Position numbers and translations under genes: made by a program
Assembly: GCA_964415885.1 (NCBI GenBank)
Contig: CAYQCE010000001.1
Location: 8,871 to 72,870 of the forward strand
Length of the DNA stretch: 64,000 nucleotides
Direction of reading: 5' to 3'
From: an uncultured Ignavibacteria bacterium
GTDB taxonomy: Bacteria > Zixibacteria > MSB-5A5 > JAABVY01 > JAHJOQ01
Shown here: one piece after another, positions 4,378 through 61,581 of the stretch
How positions within the stretch are numbered: position 1 is the first letter of the stretch
Layout: the number at the start of each line of letters is the position of its first letter
Notes under the pieces: model-generated
Databases searched by the model: none
What the model was told of the DNA's origin: nothing
The model's input: only the letters and a program-made list of their open reading frames with translations

Positions 4378-6081
4378 ATGTCAATGTATATACAAAGGAG
4401 ATCCGCAGTGCTGAGCATACCCAAACAGTTATTCTGCGCCTGCCTCGCGGTGTCGCTGATAGCACCGCTTGCCTTCGCCGATGATCAGACGGAAACGGCG
4501 GTCGAGGGCGAGAAGCACGAAGCTGTCTACTATCTACAAGATGGGCCGCGACAGGTGGCGTTTGATCCCGTGACCGGCGAATCGGAGCAGGTTCAGACCG
4601 AGATCATCTGGAAGCCGATCTGTTCTGGAGAAGCCCATGATCTGACGAACGCCGAGTTCCGGTCGTGGGTACGCGAGCACAATGCGGCAATGGAGATGAG
4701 ATCATATCAGCCGATAAACACGTCCGCGCCGGCTCGGGGGCTTGACGTCGTCATCCTGACCGACGGTTCAGTGCCTGCGGATGCTGTCGCAGCTCTCGTA
4801 GATGTCGAGCTGTATCTCGAGGCCACATTCGACGATCCAGTTACTGTCAGAGTGAGTATCGATTTCGATCCCAGCCTGCCCGGTGGAACACTGGGCGCAA
4901 CCGGTGTATATACCGCGAGTCCGATTGCGTGGAGCACGACCCGGGTGAGATTGACCGACGATATGGACCCGGATGATATCGTGCATGACTACCTGCCGTT
5001 CTCTTCCCTGCCGGTGCGCTACAACGGCGGCTCGACTACAGTTACGAATGAAACTCGCTGCTATTTCGCGTGGGCGAACTACGGTGCGGTCGGTTACACA
5101 ATTACCGGGCTCTCAGGCGCGATATCATTTAATCCGTCGGTGAGCTGGGACTATGACCCAAGCGATGGTGTCACGTGGAACAGGTACTGCTTCCAGTCCG
5201 TCGCAGTGCACGAGATAGGACATGCGCTCGGGTTTATCACAAGAGCGGAGGAATGGTATCAGCCGAATGAGGATGTTTTCTGCATGGATATTTTCCGATT
5301 CCAGCACACCGATGGTTCCGGTGACTACAACCCGGACGTGATAGCCGAATTTGAGACAACCCCGCGTCTTGTGGATTACAATTATCCTAACGACACACAC
5401 AATTCCAATCTGTTCAATCTCGACGGCGATGATATCGAGTGGCGCATGTCGGACGGCAGCCCGTACCAGGCGTCGCATCTGAGGCCGGGTGTCAACGGCA
5501 TAATGGTGCCGTACAGTGGGACGGGCGAAACCGACTACCCTGACTTTTTCAAGCAGGCCGATCTCGATATTTTCGATGCCATGGGCTGGGACTACTGGAC
5601 GACATTCCCGGATGCTGACGGAGACGGTATCGTGGATCGTGACGACAACTGCCCGCTTGTCAATAATCCCGGACAGGAGAACAGCGATACCGATGAATTC
5701 GGGGACAGTTGCGACAATTGCATCCATGTCGACAATCCGGAGCAGGACGATGGCGACGGCGACTCTGTCGGTGATTTGTGTGATAACTGCCCGGACGACT
5801 ACAATCCGGACCAGCTCGATTCAAACGGTAACGGTGTCGGAGATGTGTGCGATTTCGTGTGCGGAGATTGCGACCGCAGCATGGCTGTCGATATCGATGA
5901 TGTCGTGATGCTCATCGCTTACGTTTTCCAGTCCGGTACTCCACCGGATCCTGAAGAAGCGGGGGATGTCGACTGCTCGGGCGTAATCGACATTGATGAT
6001 ATCGTTTCCCTCGTGGCTTACGTGTTTTCCGACGGAAACAGTCCGTGTGATCCGGATGGCGACCTGATCCCGGATTGCTGA
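4378..6081 (+). CDS. Secreted zinc metalloprotease (HEIGHALGF zincin) with thrombospondin type-3 repeats and a C-terminal dockerin-like domain
   Basis: A signal peptide is present. An alternative GTG start at 4408 has AAAGGAG 7 nt upstream and gives MLSIPKQLFCACLAVSLIAPLAFA. The HExxH motif is SVAVHEIGHALGF. TSP3 repeats (DADGDGIVDRDDNCP..NPGQENSDTD..DNC..NPEQDDGDGD..DNCPDDYNPDQLD) lie at nt ~5605-5850. The C-terminal dockerin-like double Ca-loop reads GDCDRSMAVDIDDVVMLIAYVF / GDVDCSGVIDIDDIVSLVAYVF. Confidence 0.75.
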   Translation: MSMYIQRRSAVLSIPKQLFCACLAVSLIAPLAFADDQTETAVEGEKHEAVYYLQDGPRQVAFDPVTGESEQVQTEIIWKPICSGEAHDLTNAEFRSWVREHNAAMEMRSYQPINTSAPARGLDVVILTDGSVPADAVAALVDVELYLEATFDDPVTVRVSIDFDPSLPGGTLGATGVYTASPIAWSTTRVRLTDDMDPDDIVHDYLPFSSLPVRYNGGSTTVTNETRCYFAWANYGAVGYTITGLSGAISFNPSVSWDYDPSDGVTWNRYCFQSVAVHEIGHALGFITRAEEWYQPNEDVFCMDIFRFQHTDGSGDYNPDVIAEFETTPRLVDYNYPNDTHNSNLFNLDGDDIEWRMSDGSPYQASHLRPGVNGIMVPYSGTGETDYPDFFKQADLDIFDAMGWDYWTTFPDADGDGIVDRDDNCPLVNNPGQENSDTDEFGDSCDNCIHVDNPEQDDGDGDSVGDLCDNCPDDYNPDQLDSNGNGVGDVCDFVCGDCDRSMAVDIDDVVMLIAYVFQSGTPPDPEEAGDVDCSGVIDIDDIVSLVAYVFSDGNSPCDPDGDLIPDC

Positions 6082-6106
6082 TCGAACACAGTTCGGAGAT
6101 TGTCTG

Positions 6107-7309
6107 ATGTGGAGATTCCTGGCCGCTCTATTGCTGCTTTTCGCTCTGGTCAAGGCGAGCTCAGCCGTGATCATAGTTTCGGACGGGCCGCACAACGACT
6201 ATGAGTCGTGGATAGGGCGTATTCCCGATGGTCGTTTGATGATCCTGTTCGACAGGAATCCCGACTGGGCGTCAGGGGATATCTACTCCACCTTCTCCGA
6301 CGACGATGGCATCTCATGGTCCGAGGCTCAGATTGCTGTTTCAGGGTTTGGCGATCAGGCGACACTGAGTTATGTCGTCATGCCGGACGACACCGTTCGT
6401 CTATTCTATGCTTCGAATGAGACGGGCACATACAAAATCTATGAAGCGGTATCGTATAGCTGTACAACGTGGGCCGGAAGGGGCATGATCAATCTCGGAT
6501 GGTCCGTCGGCACGAATTGTTTCGACCCGACAGTCATTGTTGAAGCTGATGGCTCGCTGACAATGAGCTATGTTGTTGCCGGATCTGGCGTATATGTCGC
6601 TCACAAGCCGCTGAGCGGAGCGTGGGATCAGGATAAGGTCCAGCTCGCGACGTCGGCGTATCGTCCGCGCATAGCGAAGCACTCCGACGGGACATACATC
6701 TGCGTCTACCACAAACGCACCGGAACATCGTCACAGTATGATGTCTTTGCTCGAAAGTCCACAGGTTTGACGAACTGGTCGGAGCCGGAGAGGCTGACAT
6801 ACAATCAGAATTCACACGATCCTTTCGTCACAGAACTTCCGGACGGTTCGTATGCCGTATATTATGCGAAGTATGTGGCACCGGCCTATAATCTCTGCAG
6901 GAGGATGTCGTACGATGGCGAGTCGTGGGAATCGGAGGAACAAATCACCAGCGACGACGTGAACAACACTCAGCCACATCTTCTGTGCGAACCCGAGATG
7001 GCATATCTCGTGTGGGCTCATGCGGTGAGTTATCCCGATGACCACGATGTTTATCTCGAGAGATACGCATTCGAGCCGCAATACCTCTGTGGAGACTGCG
7101 ACTCATCCGACGGTGTCGATATTGACGACATCGTGCTTCTAATCGCATTCGTCTTTCAGGGAGGGACAAGCCCCGATCCCGCTGAAGCGGGGGATGTCGA
7201 CTGCTCCGCGGCCATAGATATCGATGACATAGTGTATCTCATCTCGTACGTGTTCGCCGGAGGTCCCGCTCCATGTGATCCCGGTGGTGACGGCCTTCCC
7301 GATTGCTGA
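6107..7309 (+). CDS. Secreted BNR/Asp-box beta-propeller (sialidase-like) protein with a C-terminal dockerin-like domain
   Basis: Signal peptide MWRFLAALLLLFALVKASSA. BNR motifs are SDDDGISWS, HSDGTYI and SYDGESWES. The C-terminus reads [23 protein letters not shown]...GDVDCSAAIDIDDIVYLISYVF. Confidence 0.65.
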   Translation: MWRFLAALLLLFALVKASSAVIIVSDGPHNDYESWIGRIPDGRLMILFDRNPDWASGDIYSTFSDDDGISWSEAQIAVSGFGDQATLSYVVMPDDTVRLFYASNETGTYKIYEAVSYSCTTWAGRGMINLGWSVGTNCFDPTVIVEADGSLTMSYVVAGSGVYVAHKPLSGAWDQDKVQLATSAYRPRIAKHSDGTYICVYHKRTGTSSQYDVFARKSTGLTNWSEPERLTYNQNSHDPFVTELPDGSYAVYYAKYVAPAYNLCRRMSYDGESWESEEQITSDDVNNTQPHLLCEPEMAYLVWAHAVSYPDDHDVYLERYAFEPQYLCGDCDSSDGVDIDDIVLLIAFVFQGGTSPDPAEAGDVDCSAAIDIDDIVYLISYVFAGGPAPCDPGGDGLPDC

Positions 7310-7369
7310 ATCAGGATTGACACATTCATTTCTACACCTATCATTTAATGAATAACCATAGCCGATGAG

Positions 7370-8026
7370 GTGAGCGTGGAATACTCCGAGGACGAAATCC
7401 GGTCCAGATGTGAAAGTTTCTGGAGGCGATGCTTTTCGCAGCTGGAAGGGGAGCTTCCGGAGCTGCCTGAGACCGTTCTGCATCCACTCTGTGATAGATT
7501 AATTGCACGGAATTGCCGCAGTGTGTTGGATCTTGGCTGTGGCTACGGCAGGTTTGCTCTGGCGCTTGCCAAAGAAGGATTCGATCTAACAGCTGTAGAC
7601 ATTTCGCAGGAGGCAATCGCGATTCTCGCAAGTACCGCCATTGAGCGTGGATTGCAGATTGAGACTATCACAGAATCAACAGACCGGTTCTGCAGACCCG
7701 ACTCGTTTGATGCCGTCCTGTGCGTGTCTGTGCTCGATCATATGCCGTTTGAGTGGGCAGAGCGGGCTACCCAGAACATTCGGATGAGTCTCAAGTCGAA
7801 CGGTCTGCTGTATACGACATTCGATCATGTTGATTCTGAAGAACAAACAGATGACATTGCTGAGCTATCGGATGGAACGCTCTTCCATGTCACAGGTGAG
7901 AGCGAGGGTTTGCTCTGGAGATATTTCACCGACGAAGAAATCAGATGGCTCTTCTCAAAATTCGAGCTTCAGTCCTTTGAAACCACTGAATCCGGCGCAA
8001 GGAGAATCTGGGCATCACGGGTCTGA
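7370..8026 (+). CDS. Class I SAM-dependent methyltransferase
   Basis: Motif I is VLDLGCGYGRFALALAKEGFDLTAVDIS. The ORF uses a GTG start, with a possible alternative GTG at 7376 after GAGGTG. Confidence 0.7.
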   Translation: MSVEYSEDEIRSRCESFWRRCFSQLEGELPELPETVLHPLCDRLIARNCRSVLDLGCGYGRFALALAKEGFDLTAVDISQEAIAILASTAIERGLQIETITESTDRFCRPDSFDAVLCVSVLDHMPFEWAERATQNIRMSLKSNGLLYTTFDHVDSEEQTDDIAELSDGTLFHVTGESEGLLWRYFTDEEIRWLFSKFELQSFETTESGARRIWASRV

Positions 8027-8230
8027 CGCGAGCAGAGTCTTCTAAAGAAAAATGTATCAAACAGCCTGTGTCGACGCACTTGTATAATGGCATGTTATGA
8101 GTGTGCTTAGGCGGAGGATGTGGCGAGACCGTCCGAAGAACTGCCCTTACTTCTACAGCAACAAAGTAGGTTTCAGATAATATTCGCACCAATTGAAATC
8201 GGATTTGTGGAGTGATATTCGGGAATTTGA

Positions 8231-8803
8231 ATGACTGTTTCACGTGAAGACAACCTGGCCCGCATGCTTGCCAACTGCAGGAATGGTGACCGTGACGCAT
8301 GGAATGAGTTGATTGAAGTTGTAGCGCCGGTCATCTTTTCTGTCTGCAAGCGCGCCAGGCTGTCACGTGATGAGAGCTTCGATATATATGGTCAGATTTG
8401 TCTTGAGCTGGTGAGATCGATTGCCGAGGTAGAATCTCCTTCGAGCATTACTGCATATGTGGCGACGATCACCAAACGCAAAATCTACCGAATCTATAGG
8501 CGAATGCAGATATTCGAGCGGATTTCCGACGATGTACAGGAATTCCTGCATGGAAGAAAGGTGGAGGATCCGGAGCTCTCTTATGGCCAAATCGAGAAAA
8601 GGAGAGTACTCAAGGATGCGATTTCCGAACTGCCGGAGCGCGACGGACGACTGATAGAGATGCTCTTTCTCGATCCCGGTGAGCCGAGTTACAGGGATAT
8701 ATCTGATAAGCTCGGCATGCCGGTCTCGTCGATTGGCCCCACGCGTATGCGCGCACTCAGGGAACTGCAGCGAATACTGAGGCGCCGGGGATATAGAAGA
8801 TAG
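8231..8803 (+). CDS. ECF-type RNA polymerase sigma factor (sigma-70 regions 2 and 4)
   Basis: 190 aa. The region-2-like segment is FDIYGQICLELVRSI...YVATITKRKIYR. The region-4 HTH is YRDISDKLGMPVSSIGPTRMRALRELQ. Confidence 0.8.
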   Translation: MTVSREDNLARMLANCRNGDRDAWNELIEVVAPVIFSVCKRARLSRDESFDIYGQICLELVRSIAEVESPSSITAYVATITKRKIYRIYRRMQIFERISDDVQEFLHGRKVEDPELSYGQIEKRRVLKDAISELPERDGRLIEMLFLDPGEPSYRDISDKLGMPVSSIGPTRMRALRELQRILRRRGYRR

Positions 8804-8837
8804 TATTTTAGGAGGTGTTTCAGGGCACTCCAACGAG

Positions 8838-9428
8838 GTGAAGATGGATAAAAATCGCGGCAAAAACGACGAAGATAGACTTCTCGAGGTTTATCTCGCG
8901 CGGGAGGATTTCGCGGATCGAGCGGAGTTGCTTCGAAGACTAAGGGTCGATAGCAGCTTCCGCCGGGTGCTGATCGATCTTCTCGAGATCCGGGCCGATG
9001 ATGCTGCCGGCTGGGATGCAGTGATGCCGGCGGCACGTGAGCTGGCACGAGGGATCATCGATAGCGTCGTGAAGGATGGTCAGCGCAATGCCGGCGTGAT
9101 CACTTACGATTCGAGTCTGCTGCCGTTGCCGGATGGAGTCCGCAGCGCCGGAGTTGACACACGGCGGCTGAAAGTTGACCTGAATGGCGGTAGGCTCTCG
9201 GTGTCTCTGTATCCGGTCACGCCGAAGTCGTACCGAGTGATGGGTCGACTTCATGACGTCGAGAGTCCGGAAGATTTCACGGCAGTGCTTAATGCACAGA
9301 GCAAGACAGTAAGAGCGCGATGCAACGAGGGCGGAGTGTTCATCCTGGATAGGGTGCCCGCCGGGACATGCGACATTACTCTGCGACGTGGTCAGGAATT
9401 AGTCTCGAAGTTCACAGTTTCGATATGA
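8838..9428 (+). CDS. Hypothetical cytoplasmic protein, a candidate anti-sigma or sigma-associated partner, with a C-terminal CarboxypepD_reg-like beta domain
   Basis: ~195 aa with no transmembrane segment or signal peptide. The N-terminal helical region is LLEVYLAREDFADRAELLRRLRVDSSFRRVLIDLLEI. The C-terminus GGVFILDRVPAGTCDITL resembles a carboxypeptidase regulatory-like fold. The likely start is the ATG at 8844, 6 nt after GAGGTG. Its stop overlaps the next gene's start (ATGA at 9425-9428). Confidence 0.5.
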   Translation: MKMDKNRGKNDEDRLLEVYLAREDFADRAELLRRLRVDSSFRRVLIDLLEIRADDAAGWDAVMPAARELARGIIDSVVKDGQRNAGVITYDSSLLPLPDGVRSAGVDTRRLKVDLNGGRLSVSLYPVTPKSYRVMGRLHDVESPEDFTAVLNAQSKTVRARCNEGGVFILDRVPAGTCDITLRRGQELVSKFTVSI

Positions 9429-12181
9429 TAGACAGCAAGACTGTACATACCATCCGTGACAAGCGAGCTCTTTCAGAGCTCGTCGACGCCGGTTACGACG
9501 GCGATTATCGTGCAATGATTTCCGATATCAGCCGTACGGTAAACAAGCATCTCATGGACGATCTGAAGGCTGCCGGAGAGTTGATCTCCGAAGTCGGACG
9601 AATCAGGAAGCATTTCCCGGAGCGTCTTCGCCCCAAGATTCAGGCGATCGAGGCAAGGTATCATCACTGGACAGGTGAGAGCAAGCGAGCACGGAGCGCA
9701 TATCTGAAGGCCGCACAGGATCTGCTTCGTTTTCGGGACTACGAGTCGGCCGCGCAGGCTCGTCTTGGACTGATGGATGTTCTCATGTATCTCGGGGAGC
9801 ATGACAGAGCTCTCGATACCGGAAGGAGTGTGCTAAGGTATTACAGGCGGAAAGGGGATTCTGTCACTGCGGCTCGCGTCATGACCAATATCGGCAATGT
9901 ATATCATCGGATGGACAGGAACAATTTAGCGCTGAGCTACTATGACAAGGCGCGGGCGATCTTTGAGGCAGATGGCGGCATTCCCGTGGCCATCGTGGAT
10001 TACAACCGCGCCAACATCTATGCCAATCTCAATCAGCTCGACAGGGCATCAGAGTTGTACGAAAGCGCCGCCGTTGTGTATTCCCAGCACGGCATGGACC
10101 TTGCTGCCGCGAAAGCTCGCTATTCGCTTGGCTATCTTCATTTTTTGTCGGATCGATACACGAAAGCGATTACTGAATTCGAGGACTTGATCGATGAGTT
10201 TGAGAGACTCGGCGACGACAAGGCGTGCACCGTGAGTCGACTCGATCTATCCGAGATCAATCTTCATTTGAATCAGTATGGTTCGGCTGTGATGCTTGCA
10301 GATCGGGTAATTGCCGAGTCCAGGTCTTCCGGCCTTGAGTACGAGTCTGCCAAGGCTGCATACTATGCGGCCGAGGCCTATCTGGAGCTTGACGAGCCGA
10401 CCGAGAGTCGGCGATATCTCCGACACGCGAGGAGTTTGTTCTCTCAGGAGCGAAACCCGCTCTGGATCGGGATGTGTGATCTTATGGAAGGCAGAATTGA
10501 GATTCGACGACGAAGATACTCGAGGGCTCTGGAGCTGCTGCTAGATGCTCGCAAGCATTTCCGCAGGAGTGGAGAGCGGCGCAGACAAGTTGACGCAGAA
10601 CTTACCGTGGCTGAAGCGGAACTGCGCTCGGGGAATGGGAAGACTGCCTCGAGGCGTCTGCGCAGGCTGCTTGATCAAAAGACGCCGGGATATCAGAAGC
10701 ACCGGTCGTATTACCTGCTCGGACTGTGTGACTTGCAGAACTTCGCTGTCAGCAAGGCACTTGCGCACTTCGAGAATGCCATGCGAACAGTTGAAGATAT
10801 TCTCGCGAATCTCTATCCCGACGAATTGCAGCACTTCTATCTTGCAGGTAACTACGATACATATCTGAAGGCTGCGGAGTGCTATCTTAAACTTGGAAAA
10901 CCGGTTGAGTCTTGTGATGTGCATTCGAGGGCGCTATCGCTTCTAAACGGCAAGCACATTCCCGCATTACATCTGCGTAGAGAGCTGTCCGAGAAACATA
11001 TCAGGGAGCGAGAGAAACTGAGGTCACAGTTGAAGAAGCTGAATCTGCTACCGCCCGGCGGTCAAAGATCTGCCGTAGCGATTGAGCCGGAAGATATTGA
11101 GCAAGATCTCTGGACGATCGAGCGCAAACTTCGTACAAGACGCTACAGATCAAAAGCCCCGGCGACTGTGGAAGTCGATTCAGAACTGATGAAGTCGTCT
11201 CTGCAGAACGGTGAGGCGATTCTGAGTTATGCGGAGATCGACGATGGCATCGTGGCATTTGTCGTGACCAAAGATTCTGTTTCGCATTACAGGTCGTGTC
11301 TCGATCCGGGAGAATTCCGCTCTCTCCTGTCTGAGTTATCGTTCATCTGCGAGAATTCAGTCTTTGAGAGGACAGCGCCAGCGTCAGATGGAGGCAGATC
11401 AAATGCCATAATAAGCCATCTCCGTGCAGGGCTTGTGGATTTTGCTCTCGATCATTCAGGCATCAAGAGGCTCATTTTGCTCGTGGATGGCGTCTTTGCG
11501 CAGGTGCCGTTCTGGGCAATGCGATTCACGGGCGGTGAGTATCTGCATGAGCGATTCAGCATCAATGTTATCTCCGACCCGGCAGATATTGTGCGAGACC
11601 GTTCTGTCAGCAGGTTCCAAAGCTCCGAGCGATCGTCTGTATTCGCGGTCGAATCAAATGAGCTGCCGATGATCAGTATTGAGACCGAGGAGATCGCGCA
11701 GAGGTTCCCGATGGCGAAAGTCCGATCAAACGGAGCGGCGACGGTCGATCTGCTTGCATCCGAGCTCAGAGAGTGCGACGGTTTCGTGCATATCGCTACT
11801 CATGCAGCACGATCGTCGGAGAACCCACTCTTTTCAAAACTTCTGATGTCGGATGGACCGTTCTACCCGTTTGATTTGTTCGAGGGAGGAGTTCGTGCAG
11901 AACTTGTTGTATTGTCGGGTTGCCAAACTGCGGCACCGGGGATATATTACGGTAACACTTTCAGTCTTGCAAAAGCATTTTACCAGGGCGGTGCTCGCTA
12001 TGTTCTGGCGTCGCTATGGCCCGTATCAGACAAGATAAGCATGTTCTTTATGAGGTCATTTTACGGATCGCTTGCGGACAATGTGAATGTACCATCAGCG
12101 TACTCCAGAGCGCTCTCGGAAGTCCGCGCCATCAATGACGATCCGGGATTTTGGGCACCCTTTGTTCTTTTGGGAATGTAA
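9425..12181 (+). CDS. TPR-repeat CHAT-domain (caspase-like) protease
   Basis: N-terminal TPR-like helical repeats include YLKAAQDLLRFRDYESAAQA, ALSYYDKARAIF and ASELYESAAVVY. The C-terminal CHAT domain has the catalytic-dyad context FVHIATHAARSS ... AELVVLSGCQTAAPG. No signal peptide is present. The start ATG at 9425 overlaps the upstream stop codon, indicating translational coupling. Confidence 0.8.
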   Translation: MIDSKTVHTIRDKRALSELVDAGYDGDYRAMISDISRTVNKHLMDDLKAAGELISEVGRIRKHFPERLRPKIQAIEARYHHWTGESKRARSAYLKAAQDLLRFRDYESAAQARLGLMDVLMYLGEHDRALDTGRSVLRYYRRKGDSVTAARVMTNIGNVYHRMDRNNLALSYYDKARAIFEADGGIPVAIVDYNRANIYANLNQLDRASELYESAAVVYSQHGMDLAAAKARYSLGYLHFLSDRYTKAITEFEDLIDEFERLGDDKACTVSRLDLSEINLHLNQYGSAVMLADRVIAESRSSGLEYESAKAAYYAAEAYLELDEPTESRRYLRHARSLFSQERNPLWIGMCDLMEGRIEIRRRRYSRALELLLDARKHFRRSGERRRQVDAELTVAEAELRSGNGKTASRRLRRLLDQKTPGYQKHRSYYLLGLCDLQNFAVSKALAHFENAMRTVEDILANLYPDELQHFYLAGNYDTYLKAAECYLKLGKPVESCDVHSRALSLLNGKHIPALHLRRELSEKHIREREKLRSQLKKLNLLPPGGQRSAVAIEPEDIEQDLWTIERKLRTRRYRSKAPATVEVDSELMKSSLQNGEAILSYAEIDDGIVAFVVTKDSVSHYRSCLDPGEFRSLLSELSFICENSVFERTAPASDGGRSNAIISHLRAGLVDFALDHSGIKRLILLVDGVFAQVPFWAMRFTGGEYLHERFSINVISDPADIVRDRSVSRFQSSERSSVFAVESNELPMISIETEEIAQRFPMAKVRSNGAATVDLLASELRECDGFVHIATHAARSSENPLFSKLLMSDGPFYPFDLFEGGVRAELVVLSGCQTAAPGIYYGNTFSLAKAFYQGGARYVLASLWPVSDKISMFFMRSFYGSLADNVNVPSAYSRALSEVRAINDDPGFWAPFVLLGM

Positions 12182-12198
12182 TCGATGAGGTGATAGTT

Positions 12199-14076
12199 AT
12201 GAGCAGGCGGATGCGAATAGTGATTACAGTGATATGTGCGATGCTACTGGCATCGAGCGTCTTGACACGCGCAGAGACATTCTCGGGCTGCGGAGTGCTC
12301 GCACAGGGACCCGGTTGTATTGTCTTTTTCCCGCAGGTTGGGGCACCCGGACCGGGCTTTCCGATGGAAGTCAGCTCTTCAGGCGAGTTTACTGCCGGCG
12401 ACTTTGTGTACGTTGAGGGCACGATTGACTTTGACTGCCCGAGTCCATGTGACAGCTCGTTTGCCTGTCTCGATGTGGCGACGATTGATTATTGTGAGTT
12501 ACCTCCGGAAGATCGGTACTTCGAGGCGCTTGGAGTTCTAATGAGTGCCGGCGGCTCAGTTCTGTTCGCCCCTGCTGGAGACTCCCAGGCGTTTTTTGAG
12601 CTTGAGAATCTCGGAGACTACGGCGCAGGTGACACGGTACGGGTTGCTGGTATACTCTCGCCCGGCTGTCAGCCGTCGTCGCCTCTGGCACTGGCCTGTA
12701 TCCTCAATAACACGATTACTCTTGCCTACTATCCCGGCTCACCGATCAGCGGAAATGCGGTGGTGCTCGTCTCTCCGGAAGCCGACATTGACTCCGTTCT
12801 GGCGGGATACGAGGCAAACGTGCTCGACAGTATTGAAGATCGGAGGACATACCTGATCGGCTTCAGCGACTCGATCCCGACATATCAGTTCATGCACCTG
12901 CTGGCTACGAATCCTGATATCCTCATGTCCGAGCCGAACTTCGAACTGGAAGTTCCGGAGAATCTCCAGATGAGCATTTCATTTCCGGATGAGCAGGCTC
13001 CAACGCATGTACCGGGTGCCTCCCCGGAGGCGTACTACGACCAGGGTGGCGGCGATGCAGTACATATCGATTCGGCTCATCAGATCTCAACCGGTACCGG
13101 TATTCGAGTTGCTGTCATCGATAACGGCTTTGATCTCGATCATCCGCTGCTCGCCGGTTCGTTCGAGTTCGGCGGTTATGACTATCTCGATGGCGATTCC
13201 GATTTGAGCCCGGACACGGGTAGCGTATTTGGGCACGGGACTTTCGTTTGCGGCTTGATCAAGCTCGTTGCGCCGGACTGCAGCATCGTGCCTTTTCGTG
13301 CGTTTGACGGTGAGGGGATTGGTAACAGCTTCGCTATCGCGCAAGCGATATATCACGCTATTGAGGTCGACGTAGACGTCATCAACATGAGCTTCGGGAT
13401 GTATGATCCGAGCATGCTCGTCGAGGATGCCTGCTATGCCGCTCGCGCTGCCGGGATAACGCTCGTCGCGGCGGCCGGGAACGACGGTACCGCCGTGCCG
13501 GTTTTCCCCGCAGCATTGCCGGATGTCATTGCGGCCGGCGCGCTTGATACCCTCGAATATGTCGCAGACTTCTCGAATTTCGGCGGGTTCATCGATGTCT
13601 GCGCGCCCGGTGTCAGTGTGTACAGCTCTTTGACCGGCGAGTGGGACTGGGGTCACTGGAGCGGCACATCATTTTCCACACCGTTCGTCAGCGCAACCTG
13701 CGCGCTCGTTCTTGCGCATGACAACGGCCTGAACGTCGGTGAGGTTAAGGCGCTCCTCAACTCTACAGCAAGGAACGAGCTGTCGTGGGGAACGGTCGAT
13801 GTTCCTGATGCTCATTACGGATATGGTTGCGTGGATGCAGCAGCGGCTGTCAGCAGCACCGATGATCCGATATGGGTCTGCGGCGATGCTGACGGGAGCT
13901 TTTCCGTTGATGTCGATGACGTCGTATTCCTCGTTGCATATGTTTTCGATGACGGCGCCGCTCCGAATCCGCTCTTCACCGGTGATCCGAATTGCTCGAC
14001 CGCGATTGATGTAGATGACATTGTATACCTCATATCCTATGTCTTTTCCGGTGGACCTGAACCTTGCTGTCTGTAG
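12199..14076 (+). CDS. Secreted subtilisin-like serine protease (S8) with an N-terminal Cys-rich repeat pair and a C-terminal dockerin-like domain
   Basis: The ATG at 12199 is preceded by GAGGTGATAG and followed by signal peptide MSRRMRIVITVICAMLLASSVLTRAET. Catalytic-triad contexts are VAVIDNGFDLDHP (Asp), HGTFVCG (His) and GTSFSTPFVSA (Ser). The C-terminus reads CGDADGSFSVDVDDVVFLVAYVF...GDPNCSTAIDVDDIVYLISYVF. Confidence 0.85.
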   Translation: MSRRMRIVITVICAMLLASSVLTRAETFSGCGVLAQGPGCIVFFPQVGAPGPGFPMEVSSSGEFTAGDFVYVEGTIDFDCPSPCDSSFACLDVATIDYCELPPEDRYFEALGVLMSAGGSVLFAPAGDSQAFFELENLGDYGAGDTVRVAGILSPGCQPSSPLALACILNNTITLAYYPGSPISGNAVVLVSPEADIDSVLAGYEANVLDSIEDRRTYLIGFSDSIPTYQFMHLLATNPDILMSEPNFELEVPENLQMSISFPDEQAPTHVPGASPEAYYDQGGGDAVHIDSAHQISTGTGIRVAVIDNGFDLDHPLLAGSFEFGGYDYLDGDSDLSPDTGSVFGHGTFVCGLIKLVAPDCSIVPFRAFDGEGIGNSFAIAQAIYHAIEVDVDVINMSFGMYDPSMLVEDACYAARAAGITLVAAAGNDGTAVPVFPAALPDVIAAGALDTLEYVADFSNFGGFIDVCAPGVSVYSSLTGEWDWGHWSGTSFSTPFVSATCALVLAHDNGLNVGEVKALLNSTARNELSWGTVDVPDAHYGYGCVDAAAAVSSTDDPIWVCGDADGSFSVDVDDVVFLVAYVFDDGAAPNPLFTGDPNCSTAIDVDDIVYLISYVFSGGPEPCCL

Positions 14077-14266
14077 GATTTGTGAATCGGGCATCGACTG
14101 CAGCTCTCAGGCATACCCGCCGAGTCCTGTCTCTGTGTGCTGACCAACTGTAAGCATTGCGAACTTAAACACGACAGGTTGATGTATCAATTGGCGGTCC
14201 GCAGTGCACTCAGATTATAGATAGCTGTAAAGATAGAATGAATTAATCCTGAACGCCACGGGAGGG

Positions 14267-15838
14267 ATGGGAATGAGAAAGTTTGCATTGCTGACTATCT
14301 GTTTCTGTCTCGTGTTATCGTCCATGCTCATTGGCGAAGATGGCAGCATCCTGCGTGACTCTAAAGAACCTCACTATGAGTGGGCACGTGATGGGTCCGA
14401 GATGGACGTTGACGTTTCGGGCTCTCTGGGTGGATATGCTATAGAGTTCTCGACCGCGCTTTTCGGATTTAGCGGCAGCGAGCCGTCGGGTAATCCGAGG
14501 AGCACTGATTGTGTTGAGGTAGACATCGAGCTTCCCGATACGGTGGGGCCGGGTCCAGGTGCAGGATGGGGGCCGCCATTGGCGGAAGGTCATTTCGAGC
14601 TTCTGAATTGCGGGGATGCACCAGCAGAGATACACCTCACACTGGCGCTGACCATCATTGTTGACCATGTCGCCGATACGACTGTCATCTCACCCGATTT
14701 CACGGTGTATCTCGGGGCGGGAGAATCGATCAGTCATGACTTCCTGATCCCGGTGCCGCCATTTGACGGCGTTTATACCGCGTGCGTTTCGGCGGTCGCC
14801 GGTGAAGCGGAGATGACCGACTGTGCTACCATGGTTGTAAATGGAATCGAGTTCCCCGGAGTGCCGTTCAGCGCTCCGGGTATTCTCGTTCAGGGCACGA
14901 ACTGTGTGCTGTTCGCTCCGCACGGCAACCCGGAGATCACCTTTGAACTCGAGCATTATGGGAGTTTTCAGGTCGGCGACGAGGTCTTCGTCTCCGGTAT
15001 GCTCTTCTGGGATTGTGATACTGACTGTGTGGATGCAGATGGTTGCGTGTTAGACAACACGATTGGTGATTTCGAAGTGCCGGACATCCCGTTCGAGGCG
15101 TGCGGTGTCCTGATTCAGGGAGTCGAATGCATCCTGCTCGAAACTCTGGAGCCGTATCCGTACGGTATGTTTGTGGTGGAGAATCTCGGGCAGTACTCCG
15201 TAAGTGATACTGTATTCGTTGCGGGCACTCTACTGCAGGATTGTCCGTCTATTTGTATGGAAGGGACCGGTTGCATTGTAGAGAACGTAATCGAACCGTG
15301 CCCGGGCGATCCCGGCGATGGCATCCCCGTTCAGGGATGCGGTGTACTGGTCGCTGATTCAGGTTGTGTGCTGTTCGCACCGACCGTTGGTATTCTTGGC
15401 ATGCCGGATGGCGGGGTGCTCCTCGAAAACTACGGTGGTTTTGGAGTTTGGGATACCGTATTTGTCGACGGCGTTTTCCAGCCCGGTTTCCAGCCGGGTT
15501 GCCCGTCCGCGCCTGGTATCATCGAAGAGAACACGATCGGAGTCTGCGATGGTGCTTTCTCGGGACATCCGAACAGACTCGAGATTCAGAACTACCCGAA
15601 CCCGTTCAATCCGTCCACAACTATAGCGCTTACGCTTCCGTATGAGACAGTAGTCAAGGTCACGATTTACAACATCGTGGGCCAGGTTGTTACAACTCTG
15701 GTTGACGATGTGTTAAGTGTCGGGACACATGAGTTTGTCTGGAACAGCTCCAACGCTGGCGTGGCGAGTGGAATGTACTTCTACAGAGCACAGGCCGGCG
15801 ATATCGATGTGACCAGGAAGATGCTGCTTGTGAAATAG
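14267..15838 (+). CDS. Secreted protein with three ~65-aa Cys-rich repeats and a T9SS (Por) C-terminal sorting domain
   Basis: Signal peptide present. An alternative ATG at 14273 follows GGGAGGG. The C-terminal ~85 aa (LEIQNYPNPFNPSTTIALTLPYETVVKVTIYNIVGQVVTTLVDD...GTHEFVWNSSNAGVASGMYFYRAQAGD) matches the T9SS type-A CTD pattern. Confidence 0.75.
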   Translation: MGMRKFALLTICFCLVLSSMLIGEDGSILRDSKEPHYEWARDGSEMDVDVSGSLGGYAIEFSTALFGFSGSEPSGNPRSTDCVEVDIELPDTVGPGPGAGWGPPLAEGHFELLNCGDAPAEIHLTLALTIIVDHVADTTVISPDFTVYLGAGESISHDFLIPVPPFDGVYTACVSAVAGEAEMTDCATMVVNGIEFPGVPFSAPGILVQGTNCVLFAPHGNPEITFELEHYGSFQVGDEVFVSGMLFWDCDTDCVDADGCVLDNTIGDFEVPDIPFEACGVLIQGVECILLETLEPYPYGMFVVENLGQYSVSDTVFVAGTLLQDCPSICMEGTGCIVENVIEPCPGDPGDGIPVQGCGVLVADSGCVLFAPTVGILGMPDGGVLLENYGGFGVWDTVFVDGVFQPGFQPGCPSAPGIIEENTIGVCDGAFSGHPNRLEIQNYPNPFNPSTTIALTLPYETVVKVTIYNIVGQVVTTLVDDVLSVGTHEFVWNSSNAGVASGMYFYRAQAGDIDVTRKMLLVK

Positions 15839-15883
15839 CCTGTTCGCAAGAACAGATGGGTGTTAGCTTCCGCACAACGCGAG

Positions 15884-15920
15884 GACGGGAAGCACGTTCG
15901 GTGCCTCCCGTCTTGCTTTG
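15884..15920 (+). terminator. Rho-independent terminator-like hairpin after the T9SS-CTD gene
   Basis: gacgggaagcac-gttcg-gtgcctcccgtc pairs at 11 of 12 positions and is followed by TTGCTTT. Confidence 0.5.
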
Positions 15921-16168
15921 AGCGGGGGGAACGTCGATCACATCCCGAAACATGCGATTACTGAGCCCATCTTAACTCTGAACGTGAATCACGGGTTTTT
16001 CCACGTTGTTCCAGTCTGGAACCCGCCTCTATCAATCTGAAAACAACTCAGGAATTCGGCTGCCCGAACCGATATTTCAACTATGACTTTCGCAAATACG
16101 GTTGTAACGCTGAGACGGTTCGGGCGGCGCTCGACCGTGCTATTACGAATCGGGCAGGGGGTCAGTGC

Positions 16169-19100
16169 ATGGCTACCAGATCGAGGACGATACATCAGAT
16201 CGAGGAGGATCTTCTCAAGTTGACAGGGAAGATCAACCAGTTTGTTTCAAGAGTGGATACTCCCGGCAGTGCCAACGAGCAGCTTTCATTTGCAAAACTG
16301 TCTCTCGACAGTTCCTGCCATCCCGCGGTCCTTGTGGACTCAAATGCCAATCTCATCTACTTCAATGACGCCGCTCTCAACAAATTCGGCTATACAGAAG
16401 AGGAATTCGGTCAGCTAAGCCTGCTCGATCTGCTTCCGAATCGCGATCCGAGTGCGTGGAGCGACCTGTGGGCTGAGATCCGGAAGCGGATGACCTACAT
16501 CGAGGATACGATCTTGAAACTCGCAAACGGCGACCGGCAGGGGGCGGAACTCACGATCAATTACCTTCGATTCGATGAAAGTGAATACGCCGCCGTGATT
16601 GTGAGAGACACCCTCGTTCACGACTCGCAGGATAACGATCTGTGGCTGAATGAGTACCAATATCGCAACTTTGTACAGAAGCATGAGGGTATAGCTTTCC
16701 GTACCACGCTCGATTTTCGTCCTGTGCTCTTTCATGGCGCACTTGAGGAAATCACAGGCTTCTCGGAAGAGGAATTCATCGAGGGTGGTATCAGGTGGGA
16801 TCAGATAATTCATCCGGATGATATTGAGCTGTTTCTCGAGCGCACGGACTATTTGCTGCGGGTTCCGAGCAGTTCGGCGGAGATCGAGTATCGTATAATC
16901 CGCAAGGATGGTGTGGTGCGCTGGCTCAGCGAGCATATTCAGAGTGTCTGCAACGTCAGGGGCGAGCCAGCTTATATCCAGGGGTTTGTCTACGATATCA
17001 CTCGTCATAAGGAGCCCGAAGAGGATCACAGAGACTCCGAGACAAAATACCGCACGATGATGGAGGCAATGCGAGATCCGGTTCATATCTGCAATCAGGA
17101 TCATCAAATCGAGTACATGAACTCGGCAATGATTGAACGCGTCGGAAGGGATGCCACCGGCGATCTCTGTTATGCGGCCCTCCATGACAGACCAGACATT
17201 TGCCCCTGGTGTCCATGGGATGAGACCAGGCTGGGCAAGACACAGACTCGCGAGATTGTCAGTCCGAAAGATGAGAAGTCTTACCAGATTACAAGTTCGC
17301 CCGTTTTTCACTCCGACGGTTCGATGGTTATGCTGACAATTTATCGGGACGTCACGGATCAGAAGAATGCTGACAAGGAGCTGTCGTTCTTGTCATCCGT
17401 AGTGCAGCAGTCAACGGAGGGCGTTGCTGTAACAGACTTGAACGGACGGATAATGTTCATCAATAGAGCCTGGGCCGAAATGCACGGATACAATCCAGAT
17501 GCCAGCTTTGAGGGGCGCCATATCAGCCTCTTTCACTCTGAAGAGTCGTACTCGATCGAAATCGCGCAACTCAGTCACGATGCCATAGAGATCGGCTCCA
17601 GGTCTGAAGAGGTGGAGCACAAGCGGAATGACGACACGTTCTTCACTGCGCTTACTACAACAACTGTACTAACGGATAATCGTGGTAGGAAATTCGCTCT
17701 CGCCATGCTCGCCAAGGATATATCGGACCGTAAGAGAGTAGAGCGTGAACTCCGCAAGCTGAACGAGGAACTCGAAGAGCGAGTTGAAGAGCGTACGGCG
17801 CATCTTCAGGAGGAACTCGAAGGACGTGAGCGTATCGAAACCGCGCTTCTGGATGAAACGGAGAAAATACAGTCACTTCTCGACAATGCGGGGCAGGGTT
17901 TCCTTACTTTCGGTTTCGATATGAAGGTGGATGTGGAGTATTCAGAGGAGTGCAGGAAGCTCTTCAACGGTGAGATTTGGGGCAGCCTCTTTCCCGATCT
18001 CGTCTATCCGGATAGCGAGGAGAAGCGGGACTTTCTGACGTCGCTGCTGACTGACTATTTTGCTGAGACAGAACCTGAACGCGTTAATCTGTTCATGAGC
18101 CTGCTCCCGTCCGAGGTTTTCCTCAACGGCAGGTACATTCAGGTCGAGTACAAGCCTATCGTTACGCCCGACAACGAGCGCGAAAAGCGTCTGCTGATCG
18201 TATTGACTGATGTGACGGAGAAGCATGAGCTGCTCGACCAGGTCGAGGAAGAGAAGAACCGTCTGAAAATGCTGGTACGAGCCGTCACGCACTACGACGA
18301 GCTCATTGATGCAGTTCGCGGTTACGAGTGCTTCTGCAAGAGCCGAGTACACAGGATTCTCGAGAGCGAAGAATCATCGGATGCTCGCATCGGCGAGTTG
18401 TTTCGAGAAATCCATACATTCAAGGGCACCTTCAGTCAACTCGAAATGAAAGGTGCGGTGGACAAGCTTCACGGCCTCGAAAGTCGGATATCGGAAATTC
18501 GCTCGAAAAGCACGAACGCTATTGACGAATTGAAAACGGTGATCGCCGATTCGGGAATCGAGAACTGGCTCGACGATGATCTCAGGATTGTCACCGGCAC
18601 ATTGGGCCACGAGTTCCTGAGTCGAAAAGAGACACTTCGAGTTGAGCCATCACATGTTGTCGAACTCGAGAAACAGATGATCTCAATTTTGTCTCCGGCA
18701 GAAATGAAGCTACTGTTGCCCAAGCTGAGACGGATGCGCTGCAAATCGTTGAAGCGCATGCTGTCGCCGTTTCCGGAATACCTTGATCGACTGGCGTCCG
18801 CATTTGGCAAAGCGATCTATCCACTCGAGATCGAAGGCGACGACATTACGGTCGACCCGGAGCGCTATCAGCAGTTCGTGAAGACTCTCGTTCATGTCTT
18901 TCGGAATATTATGGACCACGGGCTCGAGAATGTCGATGACAGAATTGAGTCCGGTAAGGATGAACAGGCTAAGGTCAGATGTTGCATCGGCAACGATGAT
19001 GAACATCTGGTAATCGAAATCTCGGATGACGGCAGGGGAATTGACGCTCAGAAGCTGCGAGAACACGCTGTCAAACTCGGCATATGCGATCAGGCCACCG

Positions 19101-19801
19101 CTGACTCGATACCGGACAGCGAGATAGTAACACTAATCTTTGATGACAATTTCTCAACCGCCCAGAGCCTTACGGCAATGTCTGGAAGAGGAATCGGAAT
19201 GGCTGCGGTGAAACGCGAACTGGACAAGCTCGGCGGCAGTGTCGAGATAGAGACAGAGATCGGCAGGGGGACTCGACAGATATACAGGATCCCGATCGAG
19301 GATTCGCTGGAGATACCGGAACTCACGGTTGACGATATCATGAAGCCCCTGATGGTCAAGGCGAGGGAGTATATGACCTCGGAGCTTGATCTGCAGATAA
19401 CCGGGGGAGACGGAGGCAGATTCAGTCGATCGGAGAAACTGGCTATTAAGAGTACTACAGCCATGATTGCAATAAAGGGAACGCTTCGCGGTACTTTCAT
19501 GCTGAGTTTTGACGAGAAGCTCGCGCGATGTGTCGTAAGTCGGTTTTCAATGGATGACCTGACCGAGGCAGAGGTTGAGGCATATGCAGAGGATACGGTT
19601 GCCGAGATATCGAATGTCATTCTGGGCCAGACGATAAGCGCGTTGCAAGAGGGTAACGACCTTGTCACTATTGAGCCGCCGGTCACGATTCGAACCAGCG
19701 CATCTCACGTCAAATACACGAAATCCTACATATACACGAACAATATCGAAACCAACGAGGGAAGCCTGAGCATCAGTTTCTTTTCTTCCGATGCTCTTTG
19801 A
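16169..19801 (+). CDS. PAS-array sensor fused to a CheA-like histidine kinase (Hpt + dimerisation + HATPase) with a C-terminal CheX/CheC-like phosphatase domain
   Basis: 1210 aa with several PAS-like segments in the first ~700 aa. The Hpt motif is FREIHTFKGTFSQLE. The CheA-type N box is LVHVFRNIMDHGLE. G boxes are DDGRGID and MSGRGIGMAAVKRELDKLGGSVEIETEIGRGT. There is no CheW-like P5 domain. The C-terminal ~170 aa (AMIAIKGTLRGTFMLSFDEKLA...EISNVILGQTISAL) resembles CheX/CheC. Confidence 0.7.
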   Translation: MATRSRTIHQIEEDLLKLTGKINQFVSRVDTPGSANEQLSFAKLSLDSSCHPAVLVDSNANLIYFNDAALNKFGYTEEEFGQLSLLDLLPNRDPSAWSDLWAEIRKRMTYIEDTILKLANGDRQGAELTINYLRFDESEYAAVIVRDTLVHDSQDNDLWLNEYQYRNFVQKHEGIAFRTTLDFRPVLFHGALEEITGFSEEEFIEGGIRWDQIIHPDDIELFLERTDYLLRVPSSSAEIEYRIIRKDGVVRWLSEHIQSVCNVRGEPAYIQGFVYDITRHKEPEEDHRDSETKYRTMMEAMRDPVHICNQDHQIEYMNSAMIERVGRDATGDLCYAALHDRPDICPWCPWDETRLGKTQTREIVSPKDEKSYQITSSPVFHSDGSMVMLTIYRDVTDQKNADKELSFLSSVVQQSTEGVAVTDLNGRIMFINRAWAEMHGYNPDASFEGRHISLFHSEESYSIEIAQLSHDAIEIGSRSEEVEHKRNDDTFFTALTTTTVLTDNRGRKFALAMLAKDISDRKRVERELRKLNEELEERVEERTAHLQEELEGRERIETALLDETEKIQSLLDNAGQGFLTFGFDMKVDVEYSEECRKLFNGEIWGSLFPDLVYPDSEEKRDFLTSLLTDYFAETEPERVNLFMSLLPSEVFLNGRYIQVEYKPIVTPDNEREKRLLIVLTDVTEKHELLDQVEEEKNRLKMLVRAVTHYDELIDAVRGYECFCKSRVHRILESEESSDARIGELFREIHTFKGTFSQLEMKGAVDKLHGLESRISEIRSKSTNAIDELKTVIADSGIENWLDDDLRIVTGTLGHEFLSRKETLRVEPSHVVELEKQMISILSPAEMKLLLPKLRRMRCKSLKRMLSPFPEYLDRLASAFGKAIYPLEIEGDDITVDPERYQQFVKTLVHVFRNIMDHGLENVDDRIESGKDEQAKVRCCIGNDDEHLVIEISDDGRGIDAQKLREHAVKLGICDQATADSIPDSEIVTLIFDDNFSTAQSLTAMSGRGIGMAAVKRELDKLGGSVEIETEIGRGTRQIYRIPIEDSLEIPELTVDDIMKPLMVKAREYMTSELDLQITGGDGGRFSRSEKLAIKSTTAMIAIKGTLRGTFMLSFDEKLARCVVSRFSMDDLTEAEVEAYAEDTVAEISNVILGQTISALQEGNDLVTIEPPVTIRTSASHVKYTKSYIYTNNIETNEGSLSISFFSSDAL

Positions 19802-35317: not shown

Positions 35318-36295
35318 ATGTGCATAGAGAGTGGATTCAGTTGCGGGCCTGAGAAAAATCTACCTGAGGCACAAATGGCCGTGAAACAGCTTATAGTCAA
35401 GAATGCGAAGCCGGACATTGAGATTCCGGACGGCGAACATACGTCCAGCCGCGAGTGGATGTTCCGGCACGTGTTCGAGAGTGTGCCGGACCCTTTACTA
35501 CTGCTCGATACAAGCGTGCCACCGAGAATCAGAGCGTCAAATCGAGCATCAGAGGAGCTGATCAGATGCCGAGGCCGCGAATTGGTGGGAAGGTCACTCT
35601 GCGATTTTCTGGACGATCGGAATGCTGCCGTGGAGTTTCAGGAAAAGCTGGGCGCCTCGGCGAGGGATGGTGGTGATCTCGAAGTGCTGGATGTCGATCT
35701 GGTTTCCTCCGAAGGAGATCTGATACCCGTGGATGTCAGGGTTATTCCTGTGACCAATAGTGCCGGCGATCAGATTGGATGGCTCTATTCGCTTCGCAGC
35801 CAATCACGGCGTCTCCGAACGCATGAGCTTCTTTTGCACGAGAGACACAAGCTTGAGAACCTCCGCAAGGCTGTGGAGAGCAAGAATGAGGCTCTGGATC
35901 GCGTGATCCATGAGATGGAATCCGACAAAGAGCAAATCTCCGCACAGATAAGGTCCAACATAAGCAAAACTGTCATGCCGCTGGTCTCGCTTCTTCGAGA
36001 GAGGCAGCTTCCCGATGACCGGGCTTATGTTGACCTACTCGAGACCAATTTGCGGGATATCGCATCCTCATTTACCACGAAGCTCGAAACTAAGTATCCG
36101 AGGCTATCACCGCGTGAGACGGAGATTTGCCGGATGATCCGGGCGGGATTCGCGACCAAAGAGATTGCCCGTATTCTCAACGTCTCAGAACAGACAATCG
36201 GCACCCAGAGAAACCGTATCAGACGGAAACTGGGCCTCGTCAACAGTGACATCAATCTATCATCCTACCTAAAGTCCCTCGATATCGTGGAATAG
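35318..36295 (+). CDS. PAS-domain LuxR-family transcriptional regulator (paralog 1 of 3)
   Basis: PAS-like N-terminus, a conserved coiled-coil linker, and the C-terminal LuxR HTH LSPRETEICRMIRAGFATKEIARILNVSEQTIGTQRNRIRRKLGL. The start is possibly at MAVKQ (35375). Confidence 0.75.
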   Translation: MCIESGFSCGPEKNLPEAQMAVKQLIVKNAKPDIEIPDGEHTSSREWMFRHVFESVPDPLLLLDTSVPPRIRASNRASEELIRCRGRELVGRSLCDFLDDRNAAVEFQEKLGASARDGGDLEVLDVDLVSSEGDLIPVDVRVIPVTNSAGDQIGWLYSLRSQSRRLRTHELLLHERHKLENLRKAVESKNEALDRVIHEMESDKEQISAQIRSNISKTVMPLVSLLRERQLPDDRAYVDLLETNLRDIASSFTTKLETKYPRLSPRETEICRMIRAGFATKEIARILNVSEQTIGTQRNRIRRKLGLVNSDINLSSYLKSLDIVE

Positions 36296-61449: not shown

Positions 61450-61581
61450 TTCCGGTGTCTCCCCAGGTTGCTGTTCTCGCGACTGCGCAACGTATCGGCG
61501 CCGGACGAGGGATGCTGGTCCGGCACCGACCTGTTTATTCATATGTATCCGGATCGATAGCCCGCTTACAGGCAATCGTGT

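Follow-up and report, generated by a model that had tools for sequence, protein, structure and literature searches.

A conserved four-gene operon of an ECF sigma factor, a candidate anti-sigma factor, a TPR-CHAT protease and a secreted subtilase in Zixibacteria and other phyla

Introduction

Release of a sigma factor of the extracytoplasmic function (ECF) type by a protease has several precedents (PMC10028731; bioRxiv 10.1101/2023.06.23.546230; PMC11506125). The locus considered here encodes an ECF-type sigma factor, a soluble partner protein, a tetratricopeptide repeat (TPR)-CHAT caspase-like protease and a secreted S8 subtilase, and lies in a window of 64,000 nucleotides (the whole stretch of DNA analysed) from contig CAYQCE010000001.1 (GCA_964415885.1; 116 kb); coordinates count from the first letter of this stretch as position 1. 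In the Craspase arm of type III-E CRISPR systems, Csx29, activated by Cas7-11, crRNA and target RNA, cleaves soluble Csx30, an inhibitor of the ECF-like CASP-sigma (PMC10028731). For CalpL/CalpT/CalpS, a signal-activated cytoplasmic protease has been described that cleaves a soluble anti-sigma-like protein and thereby frees an ECF-like sigma factor (bioRxiv 10.1101/2023.06.23.546230). In DdvA of Myxococcus xanthus (PDB 8ROT), a zinc-bound anti-sigma domain in the cytoplasm, a transmembrane part and a periplasmic TPR-CHAT part are joined in one polypeptide; DdvS/DdvA regulates a CBASS (cyclic oligonucleotide-based antiphage signalling system)/CRISPR island, and CHAT self-cleavage has been proposed as the trigger, which is unproven (PMC11506125).

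In terms of gene neighbourhood, the closest described group is ECF54, whose neighbours carry carboxypeptidase-regulatory, subtilase and CHAT domains, and for which regulation by proteolysis has been proposed with no experimental work (PMC8999054). That paper cites Huang et al. 2015 (J Bacteriol 197:2517) and Casas-Pastor et al. 2021 (PMC7826278) for ECF54, which the latter places in Actinobacteria, close to a 4Fe-4S protein and with no putative anti-sigma factor (PMC7826278). Because this domain combination has already been recorded, the gene neighbourhood as such is already catalogued and its novelty is correspondingly lower; different here are the phyla, the evidence for an anti-sigma factor, the linkage to an Opp-type importer and the lack of a 4Fe-4S neighbour among those scanned. 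The same three kinds of neighbour are found at the present locus, a likeness of neighbour domains, and the module occurs in Zixibacteria, Acidobacteria and Chloroflexi as opposed to Actinobacteria. At the level of the family, the CarboxypepD_reg protein of this module carries an anti-sigma domain, whereas ECF54 was described without one; the window's partner taken alone would look like a protein without such a domain.

Organization and conservation of the operon

Based on the open reading frame (ORF) list and the sequence itself, four genes follow one another on the forward strand of the window: the sigma factor (8231-8803, 190 residues, regions 2 and 4 only), the partner (8844-9428, 194 residues), the TPR-CHAT protein (9425-12181, 918 residues) and the S8 subtilase (12200-14076; Pfam Peptidase_S8, E = 1.1e-39). 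The partner stop codon and the CHAT start codon overlap in the tetranucleotide ATGA at 9425-9428. A first-pass annotation of the window had proposed translational coupling of the first three genes; the overlap that it had read between partner and CHAT is real, but overlap is confined to this pair, and a gap of about 40 nucleotides separates sigma factor and partner. It had also placed the partner start at GTG 8838 (196 residues), for which ATG 8844 behind the sequence GAGGTG is the better choice and the one with which public gene calls agree. The subtilase gene starts at ATG 12200, 18 nucleotides past the CHAT stop codon, with its own ribosome-binding site (GAGGTGA).

For assessment of conservation, species-representative genomes were scanned with a partner alignment, which yielded 22 loci, all from Zixibacteria metagenome-assembled genomes (MAGs), some of them labelled Ignavibacteriales. 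Gene order was read by local phmmer, with counts limited to contigs that were long enough. In all 22 loci the partner gene was immediately preceded by the sigma gene; it was followed directly by the CHAT gene in 19 of 19, and the S8 gene came after CHAT in 16 of 16. The outer flanks varied (in L003, for example, the upstream side holds genes for a chemoreceptor and a sigma-54 activator, and the downstream side one for an M28 peptidase). The overlap between partner and CHAT was present in every one of the 25 informative Zixibacteria loci, as ATGA in 24 and as GTGA in one. Outside this phylum, a Blastocatellia contig carried the order sigma-partner-CHAT-S8, and in a Chloroflexaceae contig the S8 gene stood divergently upstream of sigma-partner-CHAT; the partner hidden Markov model (HMM) matched the entire middle ORF of each of these two contigs (E = 7e-19 and 5e-16, respectively).

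The locus is thus an operon of four genes that is kept in at least three phyla, and the association of its genes is specific, far beyond chance. That linkage is kept despite permutation of the gene order (see the acidobacterial loci below) is a classical sign of a functional link. The first-pass annotation had treated the first three genes as a functional unit, and they are kept together in distant genomes; the subtilase, which it had offered as a candidate regulon gene, is indeed linked, but as a conserved fourth member it is more than a regulon candidate. None of the other three genes was found near the more distant CHAT proteins of a proteobacterial MAG, Actinoplanes, Streptomyces clavuligerus pSCL4 and Azospirillum; the latter three had been examined as a route, via CHAT homologues, to an actinobacterial ECF54 example, and none has the module.

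Two Zixibacteria loci, L008 and L020, hold the module twice, the second copy being strongly diverged and lying beside the first in divergent orientation. All four genes of the second copy are present in L008 (L008:827-6118, minus strand), so the module duplicates or is transferred as a block; L020 holds the sigma gene and the start of the partner gene only (L020:7480-8385). An apparent in-frame partner-CHAT fusion ORF in L023, a public MAG contig, which could have served as Rosetta-stone evidence, proved to be an artefact of a run of N (L023:7360-7465).

The TPR-CHAT protease

The third gene product was matched by Pfam CHAT over residues 663-917 (E = 1.7e-36) and by TPR_12 (E = 4e-20), with several Pfam TPR families covering residues 90-460 approximately; the TPR array as a whole is placed at about 90-480. 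No signal peptide could be seen at its N-terminus, nor does it contain a hydrophobic segment, as expected for a cytoplasmic protein. Full-length orthologues of 913-921 residues were found with identities down to 37% in Zixibacteria and of 20-27% in other phyla. Residues H789, H793 and C833, in the motifs IATHA and LSGCQTA, were invariant in 28 CHAT relatives with identity as low as 20%. By residue counting in the alignment, H793 (codon 11801-11803) and C833 (codon 11921-11923) correspond to H862 and C907 of DdvA, which have been named as its catalytic dyad (PMC11506125). The intact His/Cys dyad that had been read in this 918-residue protein was therefore borne out, both by its invariance and by its alignment to DdvA.

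In a search of PDB sequences, the sole CHAT match was 8ROT chain B, that is DdvA (E = 5.9e-4 for the full protein and 8.3e-5 for the CHAT domain alone), which makes DdvA the closest solved and characterized relative. When only the CHAT domain served as query, Csx29 structures were absent from the PDB matches at E <= 10. The NCBIfam Csx29 model NF041237 scored 17.8 bits against a cut-off of 300, in a match limited to the active-site region, and PADLOC gave weak matches of the CHAT domain to the BovA and SAVED_CHAT models. Judged by these comparisons, the protein is an active-looking CHAT protease and not an orthologue of Craspase (Csx29). The kinship with type III-E systems put forward in the first-pass annotation was accordingly not supported, there being no Csx30 match either (see below).

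The partner protein as a candidate anti-sigma factor

The partner is a soluble protein, with no hydrophobic segment, in which an N-terminal anti-sigma-like domain, a conserved segment and a CarboxypepD_reg-like beta-sandwich follow one another. The partner had initially been described as a cytoplasmic protein of about 195 residues with an anti-sigma-like N-terminus, and both its solubility and the anti-sigma likeness were sustained. Searches with the window's copy returned no Pfam match and no NCBIfam or PADLOC match at E <= 1. Its family comprises 119 representatives at 50% identity in a library of 1.8 billion proteins, nearly all of 190-201 residues, and carries no existing annotation. At E <= 1, Pfam zf-HC2, a family of zinc-type anti-sigma domains, was matched by the N-terminal part of 18 of 102 members, and Pfam CarboxypepD_reg by the C-terminal part of 25 of the 102; one member scored 34 bits against zf-HC2 over residues 9-32, above the curated cut-off of 22.2. 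At the same place as the zf-HC2 match, orthologues from Acidobacteria and Chloroflexi contain HxxxCxxC or Hx4CxxC (AHLRDCEHC in Chloroflexaceae, AHLASGCQRC in Blastocatellia and QHIDGGCQKC in Acidobacteria), and the partner of locus L032 contains two copies of the motif.

Given the zf-HC2 matches and the zinc motif in orthologues, the partner family is identified by sequence as a probable anti-sigma family, of which the Zixibacteria branch, including the window's copy, has lost the zinc ligands. The partner is hence the probable inhibitor of the module's sigma factor. An AlphaFold2 model built from the alignment of 102 sequences (mean predicted local distance difference test, pLDDT, 87.6) consists of four N-terminal helices (residues 5-77 approximately) and a beta-sandwich at about 85-193. 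A profile of the N-terminal 80 residues retrieved from PDB sequences RslA only (3HUG_B), at an E value of 0.33, which is not significant.

Between the two domains lies the family signature Y/F88-D89-S90-x-L-x-P94-x-x-x-G98-x-R100 (codons 9105-9143, forward strand), and this FDSxLxPxxxGxR segment is more conserved than either of the domains that flank it. Over 183 partners from Zixibacteria, Acidobacteria and Chloroflexi, residues D89, S90, G98 and R100 were conserved at 97-100%; a further arginine, R107, comes after the segment. Proteases of clan CD often prefer Arg at P1. We infer that the segment is a candidate site of recognition or cleavage by the CHAT protease. In an AlphaFold2 model from a shallow alignment, the segment was disordered.

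A relationship of the partner to Csx30 or Csx31 was considered and rejected. No PADLOC or NCBIfam model matched it at E <= 1, although whether these collections hold Csx30/Csx31 models is not established, and neither a Csx30 chain nor an anti-sigma chain was returned from PDB sequences at E <= 10 with the partner as query.

The sigma factor

The product of the first gene met the ECF superfamily model TIGR02937 with 66.9 bits (cut-off 42.9), which bears out its initial assignment as an ECF sigma factor. Pfam Sigma70_r2 was matched narrowly above its cut-off (24.6 bits; 24) and Sigma70_r4_2 narrowly below (22.5 bits; 25.7). The wider sigma family numbers 3775 database matches at E <= 1e-8, and Actinobacteria were not represented among the best 120 of these 3775 relatives. 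A scan of the window with the ECF consensus scored no better than shuffled sequence.

The module in soil Acidobacteria

Three acidobacterial loci, reached via a CHAT or sigma relative, had the permuted order sigma-CHAT-partner-S8. A metagenome scan with the acidobacterial type of partner then gave 80 soil loci (L039-L118), and in all 80, as far as each contig reaches, the genes showed part of one array: oppD-oppF-oppB-oppC-substrate-binding protein-sigma-CHAT-partner-S8-HD_5 phosphohydrolase. The first five genes of the array belong to an oligopeptide (Opp-type) ABC importer. An example of this fixed ten-gene array is found at L036:2061-14467, where the partner follows CHAT, unlike in the Zixibacteria order. 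The substrate-binding-protein gene stood directly before the sigma gene in all 39 loci that reach upstream (36 from the metagenome scan and the 3 look-ups), and in the gene calls of two loci these two genes overlap by 4 nucleotides. With partner identities of 51-92%, the acidobacterial loci may all come from one fairly narrow lineage.

A strongly conserved element of about 70 nucleotides (GGTAAC..GTAACCC..AATTACGGGTGTAAGTTTTGCGAATTTCAACTTTTTCGTAGACTC) was noted at L036:12215-12290 and in 53 of the 80 metagenome loci. Despite the 51-92% protein identity among loci, it was found only between the partner and S8 genes. It falls outside the usual ECF spacing, and is a candidate for a sigma-dependent promoter or for a leader of the S8 gene.

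The secreted subtilase found in every lineage, the neighbouring secreted metzincin, M28 and BNR proteins of Zixibacteria and the Opp importer of Acidobacteria together suggest a theme of extracellular protein degradation and peptide uptake. Gene content thus points to control of extracellular proteolysis and peptide uptake, and not antiviral defence, as the role of the module. With regard to the subtilase itself, the window's S8 protein carries a typical signal peptide, and a signal-peptide-like N-terminus was seen in most of 20 distinct orthologues examined.

Proposed mechanism and alternative explanations

To our knowledge, CHAT or caspase-like proteases that release sigma factors are known so far only from Craspase and from the self-cleavage model of DdvA. 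It is proposed, with about an even chance of being right, that in this four-gene ECF module the CHAT protease removes the anti-sigma factor, whereby the sigma factor is freed and the secreted subtilase is switched on. Based on homology, the anti-sigma domain of the partner would hold the sigma factor inactive. The CHAT protein, whose translation would be coupled to that of the anti-sigma factor, would sense a signal in the cytoplasm, possibly peptides, through its TPR array. As in Csx29/Csx30, CalpL/CalpT and, by proposal, DdvA, the activated CHAT domain would then cleave or otherwise remove the anti-sigma factor, perhaps at the Gly-x-Arg segment, and the freed sigma factor would, as linkage suggests, drive the operon and the secreted subtilase.

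Compared with the described systems, the module shares with DdvS/DdvA an ECF sigma factor under an anti-sigma domain that is tied to a TPR-CHAT region with a His/Cys dyad. It differs in that the two parts are separate soluble cytoplasmic proteins, neither of them with a hydrophobic segment, in that zinc ligands are absent from the window's copy, and in that the module has a beta-sandwich domain and a secreted subtilase in addition but no defence context. With type III-E Craspase it shares a TPR-CHAT protease, a soluble sigma inhibitor and an ECF-like sigma factor, a likeness of logic and not of ancestry; no relation of the partner to Csx30/Csx31 was found, and the window showed no CRISPR components. 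CalpL belongs to the Lon-SAVED family, is activated by cyclic oligoadenylate and is CRISPR-linked, so the resemblance lies in logic only. The stand-alone circuit from protease to sigma factor that the first-pass annotation had suggested is plausible on these grounds; its kinship with type III-E is unsupported. With an anti-sigma-like partner, an intact dyad and a neighbourhood that recurs in distant genomes, none of the outcomes named beforehand as speaking against the circuit (an unrelated partner, an inactive dyad, an unconserved neighbourhood) was found.

Several observations weigh against the proposed release of the sigma factor by proteolysis. The window's partner has neither Cys/His zinc ligands nor a Pfam anti-sigma match, and fold searches with the partner model returned Ig-like sandwiches only. 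In the deep-alignment model, the FDS...GxR segment is ordered (pLDDT 84-92) and packed on the sandwich, which fits a binding surface as well as a cleavage loop. By 6-mer enrichment, nothing convincing as an ECF-type promoter was found upstream of 25 Zixibacteria sigma genes, and housekeeping-like TTGTC...TATATT motifs precede the sigma gene in several loci; autoregulation is therefore unproven. Gene linkage, moreover, cannot tell a regulator from a target, as the ECF classification paper cautions (PMC7826278).

One alternative explanation is that the module holds an ordinary sigma/anti-sigma pair that answers to a different signal, such as thiol or redox chemistry at the zinc site of lineages that retain HxxxCxxC, with CHAT protease and subtilase as co-regulated outputs. 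This is possible, if doubtful. The HxxxCxxC motif of the zinc-binding anti-sigma (ZAS) type is kept in orthologues, and motifs of this type sense oxidation in RsrA-like anti-sigma factors. All genes of the module stand downstream of the sigma gene in one operon, and they may be its targets and not its regulators (PMC7826278). On the other hand, Zixibacteria, which have lost the Cys/His ligands, still keep the module and its strict partner/CHAT overlap, and a large TPR sensor array would be unusual on a protease that is a mere output. The most conserved part of the partner, moreover, is neither the anti-sigma domain nor the zinc site but the FDS...GxR segment, which suggests a second binding partner. 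Another explanation, and an improbable one, is that the sigma factor itself is the direct target of the CHAT protease or of the subtilase and is degraded or processed by it, with the CarboxypepD_reg protein as an adaptor. Such a scheme has been recorded for ECF54 with the same neighbour domains (PMC8999054), and would agree with a window partner devoid of a Pfam anti-sigma match; it has to contend with the family-level evidence of an anti-sigma domain in the partner and with export of the subtilase, which keeps it from encountering a sigma factor in the cytoplasm.

It was also weighed whether the module serves antiviral defence or abortive infection on its own, without Cas7-11, as a descendant or forerunner of the type III-E Craspase arm; this appears very unlikely. 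The combined logic of TPR-CHAT protease, sigma inhibitor and ECF sigma factor is the same (PMC10028731), and the PADLOC matches of the CHAT domain to BovA and SAVED_CHAT, although weak, would agree with a role in defence. Against this stand the Csx29 model score of 17.8 bits (cut-off 300), a partner with no PADLOC or NCBIfam match at E <= 1 and no PDB Csx30 chain at E <= 10, and a window of 64 kb with no CRISPR-like array and with no Cas or defence gene among the 28 larger ORFs scanned. The module also occupies a stable chromosomal position with a secreted subtilase, joined in Acidobacteria by a peptide importer, unlike patchy, island-borne defence systems, and no such module was present around the plasmid CHAT proteins examined.

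As to the signal for the proposed CHAT-mediated release, in the Rap-Phr/RRNPP systems of Firmicutes peptides are sensed in a loop that comprises a cytoplasmic TPR receptor, an Opp importer and secreted proteases of the subtilisin type. The acidobacterial operon likewise unites a TPR protein, an Opp importer and a secreted subtilase, a likeness that serves as a lead only, without evidence of homology; the differences are that no pro-peptide gene was found here and that the TPR protein bears a protease, in place of a phosphatase or DNA-binding domain. It is conceivable, though rather unlikely, that the TPR-CHAT protein is a cytoplasmic peptide receptor in a protease-driven positive-feedback or quorum-like loop. 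Taken as a whole, this speculative chain would have peptides released outside the cell by the module's own subtilase imported (in Acidobacteria by the Opp-type transporter of the same operon) and bound by the TPR array, whereupon CHAT would cut the anti-sigma factor at Gly-x-Arg and the sigma factor would increase synthesis of the protease, and in Acidobacteria that of the importer as well. We know of no such peptide sensing in the phyla of this module. If true, the loop would be a functional analogue of Rap-Phr/RRNPP with a caspase-like enzyme and an ECF sigma factor as its components.

Should release of the sigma factor by the CHAT protease prove correct, the operon would be a widespread, non-defence, split version of the Craspase/DdvA logic; the module may, in other words, be the equivalent of Craspase-type signalling outside defence. 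Soil Acidobacteria commonly carry it, and among the recovered Zixibacteria loci it is near-universal. The proposal can be tested directly in vitro, as it offers a candidate substrate (the partner), a candidate segment (FDS...GxR) and a readable output (the subtilase). Were ECF54 to turn out to be the same family, ECF54-type groups could no longer be described as devoid of an anti-sigma factor.

Other genes of the window

Pfam scans took in 28 of the larger ORFs of the window, whose products are enzymes of metabolism, sensors of the PAS and chemotaxis kinds and secreted proteins that bear dockerins; no Cas or defence proteins were detected among them. Tandem Repeats Finder returned no CRISPR-like repeat array in the 64 kb, and the earlier statement that neither a Cas gene nor a CRISPR array is visible was upheld by these two analyses. 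From 4378 to 19801, the neighbours of the module are a metzincin, a BNR protein, a methyltransferase, the S8 subtilase, a protein with a type IX secretion system (T9SS) tail and a PAS histidine kinase. No ferredoxin-type or 4Fe-4S protein was matched among these scanned neighbours, and neither a small pro-peptide ORF nor a known RNA family was found around the module.

The setting of the module among secreted dockerin-bearing proteins, noted at first pass, was recovered in the form of a C-terminal double repeat, D[IV]DD[IV]V x2, common to seven secreted proteins of the window. These are the metzincin (4378-6081), the BNR/sialidase-like protein (6107-7309), the S8 subtilase (12200-14076) and four large Laminin_G or TSP_3 proteins (46517-50488, 54832-58803, 58867-61575 and 61582-63960). 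Pfam Dockerin_1 was matched, weakly, by one of the seven; the double repeat resembles a tag for anchoring or sorting that is used throughout the lineage.

A Cys-rich N-terminal repeat domain is common to the S8 subtilase (12200-12900) and the protein with a T9SS C-terminal sorting domain (14267-15838), with a phmmer E value of 4.7e-19. The shorter S8 orthologues of most other Zixibacteria loci (about 475-500 residues) gave no cross-match to the T9SS-sorted protein. Downstream of the module, a multi-PAS histidine kinase of 1210 residues is encoded at 16169-19801; its orthologue in L001, also of 1210 residues and at the same position, includes a CheX-like domain according to precomputed Pfam annotation, and the kinase gene is absent from that position in more distant Zixibacteria loci. 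Further along, three LuxR-type (GerE) regulators (35318-36295, 39746-41155 and 51877-53457), two of them with PAS domains, form a cluster in which they are interleaved with two methyl-accepting chemotaxis proteins (36772-38841 and 41461-43635). A 138-nucleotide tandem repeat (2.5 copies, 76% matches) spans 47354-47692, within a gene for a thrombospondin type 3 repeat protein of 1323 residues.

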